IMG/VR virus record: IMGVR_UViG_3300036785_000296
Span: 1-64,000 of that record
Reading direction: 5' to 3' (one strand)
Source: a virus
DNA: 64,000 bases
Shown here: piece after piece, positions 28,035 to 29,658 of the stretch
Layout: every line of letters begins with the position of its first letter
How positions within the stretch are numbered: the stretch's first letter is position 1
Notes under the pieces: generated by a model
Databases searched by the model: none
What the model was told of the DNA's origin: nothing
What the model saw: the letters and a program-made list of their open reading frames with translations, nothing else
Translations under genes and position numbers: made by a program

Positions 28035-28195
28035 CGCTTGTCCACAATCCGGCGCTCTCCTGTGGAAAAAGGCGACATTTTGTCCGAAGGGGGATGACAG
28101 CCGTCACAGATCACTGGTACGTGTCCATAGCCAAGTTCGCTTGGTGGGGGACGGCGCGACCCAACTTCGCGTCTCATTTCAGGATACCTGACAAC

Positions 28196-28537
28196 ATGAA
28201 GCATCTTCTTCTGGCGGGCGTCGCCGCCATCGCGATGTCGTTCGCCGGCATCGCCGCTGCGGCCACCGCCACCACGGCCACCGCAACCAGCGGCGCGGCC
28301 AGCGGCACCTTCAGCGTCCAGGCCGGGCCGGGCACGACCATCGCGGCGTCGACGTCCACGAACACCTCGAACGGCAACGCCCAGGCGCTGTCGCTCCAGC
28401 CGGTGTTCTCGGCGACCAACGCCAACTCGACCACGAAGGGCTCGGCGTCCAACGCCTCGACTTCGAACGCGGCTTCGCTCTCGGGCGGCTTCTCGTTCCA
28501 AGACGGCACGGCGACTTCTTCGGCGCTGGCTCACTGA
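28196..28537 (+). CDS. Small secreted Ser/Thr/Ala/Asn-rich protein
   Basis: Sec signal MKHLLLAGVAAIAMSFAGIAAA; low-complexity mature part. Confidence 0.75.
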   Translation: MKHLLLAGVAAIAMSFAGIAAAATATTATATSGAASGTFSVQAGPGTTIAASTSTNTSNGNAQALSLQPVFSATNANSTTKGSASNASTSNAASLSGGFSFQDGTATSSALAH

Positions 28538-28605
28538 GCCTCGCGAGCCGGTCTCTGCCCGCGCCCCCCAGCACCCGCTAGGGCTTCGCGGAACGAGCCG
28601 GCAAC

Positions 28606-28650
28606 GAAGGGAGGCGGGGGGAGAACAGGCCCCTCGCCTCTTTCTCTTTC
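28606..28650 (+). terminator. Intercistronic intrinsic terminator
   Basis: GAGGCGGGGGG/CCCCTCGCCTC stem then TTTCTCTTT. Confidence 0.7.
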
Positions 28651-28671
28651 AAACCCAAGGTGGGGCTCCAG

Positions 28672-29658
28672 ATGAACAAACTCCTCGCGACCACTGCGGT
28701 CGCGCTCCTCCTGGGCGGCCCGGTGCTCGCCCAGCAGACCTCGACCTCCGACGCGACGTCGACCGCCCAGCAGAAGCAGGGCGAAGTTCAGACCCAGAAC
28801 CAGTCGAACGGCGCGAACACCAACGGCCCGCAGACGACCACGGTGGGTCCGCAGACCTCGACCTCCAACTCGGACAGCAAGGCCAACTCGGGCTCGCTCT
28901 CCAACGCCAACAACGGCGGCCAGCAGACCACGGTCGCGCCGGTCTCCACGTCGGCCAACGACACCTCGAACTCGAACGCCCGCTCGAACGCCGAGACCAC
29001 CTCGATCTCGGTGGCCAAGGGCGGCACGGGCGGCTCGGCGACCGGCGGGGCGGGCGGCTCTTCGACCTCGACGTCCGGTGGCGGCAGCGCCACCTCGAAC
29101 GCGGCGGGCGGCAACGCGACCGGCGGCAACTCCGCAGCGACGGCCAACCCCAACGCCAACAACGCCGGCAACGCCCAGAACATCACGTTCAACAGCCCGG
29201 CGACGCCCACGCACACCTCGGCCGACATCAAGAGCGCGCCGACCGTCTACGCGCCCGCCCTGGCGACCACCCTCACGGAAACGTGCATGGGATCGTCCAG
29301 CGCGGCGGGCAGCGGCATGGGCTGGGGCCTCTCGTTCGGGTCGACCTGGGAGGACAAGGCTTGTGAGCGCAGGCTCAACGCCGACCGGGTCGCAGGCCTC
29401 TTCGGGGACCGGGAGGCGGCCAGGGCGATCATGTGCGGCGACAGGACCGTGTACGAGGCCTTCGAGCGCGTCGGCCGCCCGTGCCCTGGTAGCCCGAACT
29501 ACCATCCGGAGCAGAAGGAGTTCTATCCGGCGTCGCCCGCCGACGTGCCGCCGCCTCCGCCTCCGCCTCCGCCGCCCCAGGCAGCGCCGCCGCCGCCGCC
29601 CGAAACGATGGCGCCGATCCCGAATAACTACGAGGCGCCGAGGACGCCCCGGAACTGA
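28672..29658 (+). CDS. Secreted Q/N/S/T/G-rich protein with 4-Cys C-terminal domain and poly-Pro tail
   Basis: Signal MNKLLATTAVALLLGGPVLA; TCMGS...ACERR...MCGD...PCP. Confidence 0.85.
   Translation: MNKLLATTAVALLLGGPVLAQQTSTSDATSTAQQKQGEVQTQNQSNGANTNGPQTTTVGPQTSTSNSDSKANSGSLSNANNGGQQTTVAPVSTSANDTSNSNARSNAETTSISVAKGGTGGSATGGAGGSSTSTSGGGSATSNAAGGNATGGNSAATANPNANNAGNAQNITFNSPATPTHTSADIKSAPTVYAPALATTLTETCMGSSSAAGSGMGWGLSFGSTWEDKACERRLNADRVAGLFGDREAARAIMCGDRTVYEAFERVGRPCPGSPNYHPEQKEFYPASPADVPPPPPPPPPPQAAPPPPPETMAPIPNNYEAPRTPRN

Follow-up and report, generated by a model that had tools for sequence, protein, structure and literature searches.

A mobile two-gene cassette pairing a small, nearly uncharged, predicted exported protein with a four-cysteine partner in phages and proteobacterial chromosomes

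Introduction

Sp of phage T4 and Sim of phage P1 are phage-encoded, Sec-exported superinfection-exclusion proteins that act in the periplasm. Curli, Fap and the Caulobacter holdfast anchor (Hfa) combine a small, exported, amyloid-like and uncharged subunit, made in excess, with a second exported protein, and proteins of the OmpA/Pal type carry an OmpA_C domain, which in OmpA lies behind the barrel. In the current study, we characterized a pair of genes that recalls parts of all these systems. It lies on the plus strand of a 64-kb stretch of DNA from a soil phage (hereafter the window; positions 1 to 64,000 of IMG/VR record IMGVR_UViG_3300036785_000296). The whole record is complete, measures 74,004 bp and has direct terminal repeats. 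The first gene encodes a 113-amino-acid protein (P0001, the small protein) and the second a 328-amino-acid protein with a domain of four cysteines (P0002, the large or four-Cys protein). An earlier note, written from the letters of the window alone, had described both as exported and the pair as a phage-encoded cassette for a secreted fibre or amyloid.

The likeness to T4 Sp and P1 Sim is one of description alone: the cassette is phage-encoded, its products appear to be Sec-exported and periplasmic, and it has a promoter-like motif and sits at the end of a non-structural block. Unlike Sp and Sim, it combines two proteins in a conserved arrangement for differential expression and is found in bacterial chromosomes too. 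With curli, Fap and Hfa it shares the logic of a small subunit in excess, but it differs from curli in having no curlin repeats, no dedicated outer-membrane channel gene, two proteins without detectable homology to each other and a partner that seems to be tethered to peptidoglycan; Fap and Hfa are likened to it by design logic only, and an NCBIfam scan of P0001 and P0002 was empty at E ≤ 0.1. Bacterial homologues of the large protein share the OmpA/Pal layout of N-terminal module, Pro-rich hinge and OmpA_C. The window protein is unlike that type in lacking OmpA_C and in having an N-terminal four-Cys alpha/beta domain that is neither a beta barrel nor a lipoprotein.

The only existing filing of the large-protein family is phrog_20531, function unknown, whose members include ORF122 of Ralstonia phage RSP15, ORF070 of phiRSL1 and gp45 of Pelagibacter phage HTVC023P. 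Like the window protein, these have a signal peptide, a low-complexity tract and the four-Cys domain; unlike it, the Ralstonia and Pelagibacter phage members have no upstream small partner, and their tails are Lys/Glu-rich or of the DPIVRxRxGLPPL type. Inspection revealed no spanin features (lipobox Cys, inner-membrane anchor) in either protein, the signal peptides being of type I, and no class II microcin features, the N-termini being of the Sec type instead of double-glycine leaders and the cassette holding no exporter genes. Among PADLOC defence models, the only matches were of ZorB models to the OmpA/MotB-like part of a Sphingomonas homologue, and nothing relevant was found in the literature on phage-encoded amyloid or curli or on phrog_20531. 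Novelty is meant here in the sense that the pair has no defining feature of any known system, rather than in that of a demonstrated mechanism.

Results

A conserved two-gene unit

The small gene and the four-Cys gene form a conserved two-gene unit. By tblastn and analysis of open reading frames (ORFs), the order small gene, hairpin, four-Cys gene was found in ~27 of the ~36 loci with enough upstream sequence, namely the window and loci L003-L012, L016, L020-L029, L031-L033, L035 and L036; partial copies stand at the contig ends of L001 and L014. The carriers include phage contigs (L003-L012, and L016, which is viral and only 45% GC), chromosomes or metagenome-assembled genomes (MAGs) of Novosphingobium, Sphingomonas and Caulobacteraceae (L020-L029, L036), three further MAG contigs (L031-L033) and a secondary replicon of Burkholderia cenocepacia (L035). 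In L035 two small genes precede the four-Cys gene, and L023 has two small genes as well. Identities to the window copies of the small and large proteins are 73 and 62% in L012 and 33-38 and 43-50% in L008-L011; they fall in step across loci, which fits inheritance of the pair as a unit. With dozens of independent occurrences, the arrangement goes beyond chance. Linkage of the two genes, as claimed in the earlier note, is thus borne out by ~27 loci that include phages with unrelated flanks and bacterial chromosomes. Its description of the module as phage-encoded holds for the phage copies but is too narrow, since chromosomal copies exist. A blastn search of the cassette region against isolate phages gave no match.

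Expression signals

A control region (28038-28195) precedes the small gene, as the note had said, and is kept in related phages as a promoter-like TTGACN/TGCTAC motif followed by two hairpins. Upstream regions of 8-11 related phage loci carry TTGACN or TTGGCA, a gap of ~13-15 nt and TGCTAC, at equal distance from the start codon. We read this motif by eye as an alphaproteobacterial promoter of the sigma-70 type; a scanner built on the E. coli-type consensus reported no promoter. Both leader hairpins were recovered by RNAalifold over eight phage loci, with 17 pairs, five of which show compensatory double changes, and likewise by folding of the single sequence. They may act as an mRNA stabiliser or regulator. 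The leaders of sphingomonad chromosomal copies are of other sequence and also rich in hairpins.

The strong terminator proposed between the two genes proved real by folding: RNAfold gives a stem of 12-16 bp (z = -2.5) before UUUCUCUUUC, and the predicted structure combines a GC-rich stem-loop with an adjoining U-rich tract, as in intrinsic (Rho-independent) terminators. A simple consensus terminator scanner did not flag it, and an Rfam scan of 27500-30300 returned only a chance miRNA-like match on this hairpin. All 19 intergenic regions that were folded contain a perfect GC-rich hairpin of 10-17 bp, of differing sequence, followed by a pyrimidine- or U-rich tract; loci of lower GC have textbook U-tracts at this place, complete in L025, L031 and L033. 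Because the hairpin recurs in every folded region, an intercistronic terminator or attenuator appears to be a conserved part of the design. The Shine-Dalgarno-like sequence of the large gene is kept as (A)AGGTGGGG in L003, L006, L008-L010 and L012. We infer that the transcript is short and stable, that the small protein would be abundant and that the large gene would be read only by read-through; an excess of small over large product, as first proposed, is plausible in view of the 19 hairpins.

The small gene and its product

The small protein starts with the n-region, h-region and AxA-type cleavage site of a predicted Sec signal peptide, MKHLLLAGVAAIAMSFAGIAAA|A (AAA|A); signal peptides of both proteins were judged by inspection and with a rule-based script. 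Its mature part consists to 82% of S/T/A/G/N/Q and holds two charged residues, in line with the nearly uncharged exported protein that had been described, and the ORF exists as first reported. In 26 small homologues the mature part has 69-82% S/T/A/G/N/Q, 0-4 charged residues and 12-20% bulky hydrophobic residues. The C-terminus is His in 17 of the 26 (…AH, …SH, …YHH, …YHHH) and PF in another four, a signature for which no explanation was found; others, in L021, L023b and L028, have a pair of Cys at the C-terminus or finish in a Ser/Gly-rich stretch.

By codon usage the plus strand is preferred to the equally open antisense ORFs, and in a comparison of 14 homologous small genes no frame but the sense frame stays open throughout. 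Two antisense ORFs on the minus strand, 28174-28509 and 28788-29231, are long, have high GC3 and overlap the two genes; as candidate genes they were ruled out by codon usage and frame openness. A collection of 5.8 billion proteins contains the product of the large gene and not that of the small one, and so gene callers probably miss or mis-strand the small gene and hide the pairing in databases. The small gene being easily missed in high-GC DNA, the module is probably under-counted.

Searches with the small protein found no Pfam family at E ≤ 0.1 and no PADLOC match, and tblastn against phages gave none either. Against the 5.8-billion protein set, the single sequence had one match (P0040) and the alignment profile two weak ones, the low-complexity profile being too weak. 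AlphaFold2 modelled the small protein, from 18 sequences, as four long antiparallel beta strands (pLDDT 60-78). The top structural matches of this model were the long membrane hairpins of CsgG, perforin/MACPF proteins, gasdermins and lysenin, all below significance (E ≥ 0.06, Z ≤ 4.5), and they probably reflect only the shape "two long hairpins". Owing to its content of bulky hydrophobic residues, the small protein looks too polar for a lipid-facing barrel.

The large gene and the four-Cys family

The large protein likewise had been outlined correctly, with its Q/N/S/T/G tract, its domain of four cysteines and its poly-Pro tail, and its ORF exists as first reported. It begins with a Sec-type signal peptide, MNKLLATTAVALLLGGPVLA|Q (VLA|Q), and the conserved stretch before the domain reads GNAQNITFNS ... 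PALATTLTETC. Residues 91-276 of P0002 match positions 98-278 of the 314 in the phrog_20531 profile (PHROGs v4) with E = 5.4e-18, and the profile also recognises relatives in Ralstonia phages, in Pelagibacter phages, in Burkholderia and in Sphingomonas. The four-Cys family comprises 1511 relative clusters (50% identity) at E ≤ 1e-3, which according to Atlas are mostly viral. No match to the large protein was found in Pfam (E ≤ 0.1) or PADLOC or by a sequence-profile search of the PDB, and by these searches both proteins are undescribed.

AlphaFold2, with 59 sequences, modelled the four-Cys domain as a beta hairpin, with Cys closing its base, ahead of three to four helices of pLDDT ~90; the conserved stretch before the domain came out as disordered. 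The model had no counterpart among solved folds (Foldseek against the PDB, E ≥ 5.9; VIA-align wide, Z ≤ 2.8), and in BFVD it matched uncharacterised viral relatives only. A muralytic or other enzymatic role of the domain was considered and is unlikely: the conserved columns are limited to Cys, Gly, Ser, Asp and Arg, with no acidic catalytic pair among them. When the alignments of the small and large proteins were compared with hhalign, only the 25-residue signal peptides aligned.

Two variants within the family may be recorded here. In a subfamily consisting of P0083, P0106, P0120, P0149 and P0151, one to three extra copies of a short second Cys module, PGC[RH]xEYxxxGGWxxxC, are spaced by long low-complexity repeats. 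Betaproteobacterial and Ralstonia-phage proteins (L035 7632-9254; L019 3377-4324; L042 2314-3399; P0160) have the post-domain motif …DPIVRxRxGLPPL… where alphaproteobacterial proteins have the TMAPIPN…PRN end.

Predicted location

In several homologues (P0025, P0030-P0035, L022 and L026) a peptidoglycan-binding OmpA_C domain (PF00691) is fused behind the Pro-rich hinge, an arrangement typical of outer-membrane or periplasmic proteins tethered to the wall; Pfam finds none in P0002. The fusion in chromosomal homologues points to the periplasm. Neither protein shows, by inspection, a lipobox or a further hydrophobic or C-terminal transmembrane segment. The window cassette holds no outer-membrane channel gene of the CsgG, FapF, usher or secretin type (neighbours in the other loci were read as ORF lists, and a few of these neighbours were scanned with hidden Markov models), and no neighbour beyond the pair is conserved across loci, save a 69-amino-acid ORF in the close phage clade. 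On the simplest reading of these features, the two proteins would be retained in the periplasm or along the inner side of the outer membrane.

Mobility and a possible third gene

The pair behaves as an autonomous, moron-like and horizontally mobile cassette. Within 5-6 kb, the flanks of L003-L012 contain no detectable relative of the genes that flank it in the window, and the tail-fibre side of the window was found only in L001 and L002. The tail-fibre-like gene has an 80% identical copy at the same position in L002 and a short N-terminal match in L001 (46% over ~106 residues), and is not common to the remaining cassette-bearing loci. The few phage neighbours that were scanned differ in kind (ATPase, HNH nuclease, tail fibre); chromosomal neighbours vary by locus and are non-phage, among them efflux components, TonB-dependent receptors, TPR proteins and a sigma-54 activator. 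Only three of 401 sampled genomes of the class carry the four-Cys domain. A part in conjugation was considered and dropped, as the six matches in a plasmid collection all fall on large, unannotated and non-mobilizable replicons (1.1-3.5 Mb) and none falls on a small conjugative plasmid.

The 69-amino-acid ORF lies directly 3' of the four-Cys gene in six phage loci, of which L003, L006, L007 and L012 have flanks unlike those of the window and L001 and L002 share its tail-fibre side; it is absent from chromosomal loci. A conserved GGGGCCGCGTCGATTAGC-like motif stands upstream of it. It has no family match, and the two small ORFs downstream of the cassette have no PADLOC match. It could be a third member of the module or a separate small membrane protein with holin-like features, its membership being uncertain.

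Genomic context

The phage DNA has a GC content of ~68%, and the structural gene set is that of a contractile-tailed phage. A plus-strand block of recombination genes and an HNH nuclease gene terminates at the cassette, whose neighbours are a Zn-finger protein (phrog_33336), the HNH nuclease, two ORFs of 68-69 amino acids and the tail fibre (Table 1). A search of the entire 74-kb genome revealed no Tyr integrase (Phage_integrase), and a virulent lifestyle is therefore probable. The same genome had no match to six endolysin-type Pfam families (Phage_lysozyme, SLT, Amidase_2, GH108, GH19 and Peptidase_M15_4), two of which matched no control genome either and carry no weight; holin and spanin families were not among the searches. 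An alphaproteobacterial host is probable, since the cassette genes have their closest cellular relatives in Sphingomonadales and Caulobacterales. Public sequencing runs that contain the stretch are two soil DNA runs, with no RNA run among them.

Table 1. Positions of the cassette features and of other genes in the window; residue numbers refer to the large protein
Feature	Position	Strand	Details
Terminase genes	8662-10642	minus	
Helicase gene	12020-13528	minus	
RuvC-like resolvase gene and second HNH gene	16434-17440	minus	
HNH endonuclease gene	26987-27496	plus	immediately 5' region of cassette
166-amino-acid Cys-rich Zn-finger-like gene	27534-28034	plus	phrog_33336 (function unknown); adjoins cassette upstream
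Promoter-like element	28094-28123	plus	ATGACA (-35-like), ~15 nt, then TGGTACGT (-10-like; TGCTAC in relatives)
5' leader hairpin 1	28131-28144	plus	CCAAG-UUCG-CUUGG
5' leader hairpin 2	28153-28173	plus	GGCGCGA-N7-UCGCGUC
Small exported subunit, P0001	28196-28537	plus	113 amino acids; predicted signal peptide ~residues 1-22; end ...ALAH
Predicted intercistronic terminator/attenuator	28609-28649	plus	GC-rich stem-loop 28609-28640, then UUUCUCUUUC
Shine-Dalgarno-like sequence of large gene	28657-28665	plus	AAGGUGGGG
Large exported partner, P0002	28672-29658	plus	328 amino acids; predicted signal peptide 1-20
S/T/N/Q/G low-complexity tract	residues 21 to ~160		
Conserved segment and four-Cys domain	residues ~160-272		GNAQNITFNS...PALxTTLTETC
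Four Cys (C205, C231, C255, C271)	codons at 29284, 29362, 29434, 29482		invariant in relatives
Pro-rich tail	residues 285-328		ends TMAPIPN...PRN, kept among phage copies
Possible third member, 69-amino-acid ORF	29784-29993	plus	one N-terminal hydrophobic segment (MTDPVIIAAAAVLLIPQLAP); His/Arg-rich C-terminus (…GSHHHHHHR)
Structural genes (tail fibre proteins, baseplate, tape measure, sheath, major head protein, protease)	~30171-58234	minus	
1331-amino-acid tail-fibre-like gene	30171-34166	minus	convergent with cassette

Discussion

We propose, with slightly less than even confidence, that the pair is a periplasmic, wall-tethered two-component envelope module, in which an excess of the small subunit collects on or around an anchored four-Cys partner and which a phage expresses to change the envelope of its host. 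The proposal starts from the genes, their linkage and mobility, the conserved hairpins and the domain fusions of relatives, and extends these to promoter use, transcript ends, stoichiometry, export, location, assembly and role. Host RNA polymerase would start at the module's own sigma-70-like promoter, and the transcript would open with two stable hairpins and mostly stop at the strong hairpin 3' of the small gene, leaving the 113-amino-acid subunit in large excess over a 328-amino-acid partner translated from read-through transcripts only. After export by Sec, both would remain periplasmic or lie on the inner side of the outer membrane. The C-terminal part of the large protein would fix it in the envelope; this part is OmpA_C behind a Pro-rich hinge in bacteria and the Pro-rich tail with its conserved terminal peptide in phage. 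The large protein would also present a disulfide-stabilised four-Cys domain together with a long uncharged tract. The small subunit, uncharged and rich in beta structure, might assemble on this anchor, or around it, into a peptidoglycan-associated layer or polymer. In this way the phage may alter the envelope of the infected cell, the likeliest purpose being to bar entry to other phages or to enzymes that degrade the wall, in a way akin to that of periplasmic superinfection-exclusion proteins, and in this phage clade the module may take in a third small membrane protein.

Several points weigh against this proposal. The promoter is a by-eye reading only; assembly of the small subunit rests on composition and on a moderate-confidence model from 18 sequences; the four-Cys domain has no known fold or function; and the phage version of the large protein lacks OmpA_C, and its tail peptide is only guessed to bind. 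Since the phage's lysis genes were not located, position does not exclude a role in lysis. Finally, the small partner is absent in Pelagibacter phages, in Ralstonia phages (phiRSL1, RsoM2USA and RSP15) and in L015, L040 and L041, which suggests that in distant members the large protein can work alone or with a long low-complexity tract of its own; partnerless four-Cys proteins often do carry a much longer Gly/Asn/Ser tract.

As a separate observation on partnerless phages, a hypothetical gene of 430-460 amino acids without a PHROG match lies 3' of the four-Cys gene in pelagiphages HTVC023P (gp46; L017 4514-5899) and HTVC202P (gp25; L018 4487-5785), and it may be a different conserved partner in that clade.

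A bolder form of the envelope module is also conceivable, and we rate it as unlikely at present. The pair would then represent a new class of self-assembling envelope polymer, in which uncharged beta subunits, abundant and often with His or Phe at the C-terminus, polymerise on a dedicated, wall-tied four-Cys anchor. Such a polymer would be unrelated by homology to curli, Fap, pili or S-layers, and phages would pass it among Proteobacteria as a portable armour or exclusion layer.

The alternative put forward in the earlier note is a surface fibre or functional amyloid, with the small protein as major subunit of an extracellular polymer like those of curli, Fap or the holdfast anchor, and the four-Cys protein as its nucleator or anchor, serving adhesion, matrix formation or receptor masking. 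Composition speaks for it: the small protein is rich in uncharged S/T/A/G/N/Q and predicted to be all beta, its N- and C-terminal strand motifs look alike (SGTFSVQAG and SGGFSFQDG), and the large protein has a tract of similar make-up. The expression design, with the major product far exceeding the minor one, fits as well. However, the 18 small homologues matched neither curlin repeats nor any other family, the six weak matches in Pfam at E ≤ 1 being to unrelated families and not to Curlin_rpt, and no solenoid, which the note had suggested looking for, was predicted, the best of the non-significant structural matches being long hairpins of pore formers. The alignment of the two proteins in their signal peptides alone gives no sequence support to a nucleator related to its subunit as CsgB is, since the N-terminal tract of the large protein does not align with the small protein. 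Moreover, the cassette has no gene like CsgG, FapF, an usher or a secretin, nor a conserved neighbour, and OmpA_C on the bacterial partners implies binding to peptidoglycan, a periplasmic feature. We regard an extracellular fibre as distinctly improbable.

Still more doubtful is an outer-membrane pore or lysis accessory, in which hairpins of the small protein would oligomerise into a barrel and the Cys/Pro-rich partner, with the downstream small membrane protein, would aid late disruption of the envelope. The weak matches of the small model (all Z ≤ 4.5) are indeed to transmembrane hairpins of pore-forming proteins (MACPF/perforin, gasdermin, lysenin and CsgG), some small homologues end in aromatic ...PF as outer-membrane proteins do, and the third ORF combines one hydrophobic segment with a basic C-terminus, as a holin might. 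Lysis genes are unlocated, with no endolysin among the six families tried (two of them lacking a control match) and holins and spanins outside the searches. On the other side, those structural matches are below significance, a content of 12-20% bulky hydrophobic residues leaves the small protein too polar for lipid-facing strands, and the large protein has neither a lipobox nor a transmembrane anchor. Chromosomal copies also stand alone outside prophages, with their own promoters, and would be harmful if lytic.

Least credible of all is a Sec-exported bacteriocin-like peptide released on lysis or leakage, with the four-Cys protein as its carrier or as a factor for immunity or maturation: bacteriocin operons commonly have a terminator that separates the first gene from the second, the small protein presumably resembles Gly/Ser-rich microcins in size and composition, the Cys-paired or Ser/Gly-rich ends of L021, L023b and L028 and a weak structural match to lactococcin 972 (Z 3.1) would suit such a peptide, but there is no double-glycine leader, no exporter or modification gene and no family match, the second protein is large, exported and apparently wall-tethered, unlike known immunity proteins, and immunity would be of little use to a virulent phage.

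The wall-tethered envelope module concerns a large family of four-Cys proteins for which we found no name, Pfam or NCBIfam model, solved fold or literature. In a large part of that family the four-Cys gene belongs to a fixed unit of two genes, which has conserved expression signals and moves between phages and bacterial chromosomes; what was a hypothetical protein thereby becomes a defined system that can be tested. Should the small subunit indeed assemble on a wall-tethered anchor, the pair would represent a new kind of bacterial envelope structure and would give phages a new route to alter the surface or periplasm of their hosts, for example for superinfection exclusion, protection from wall-degrading enzymes or adhesion.

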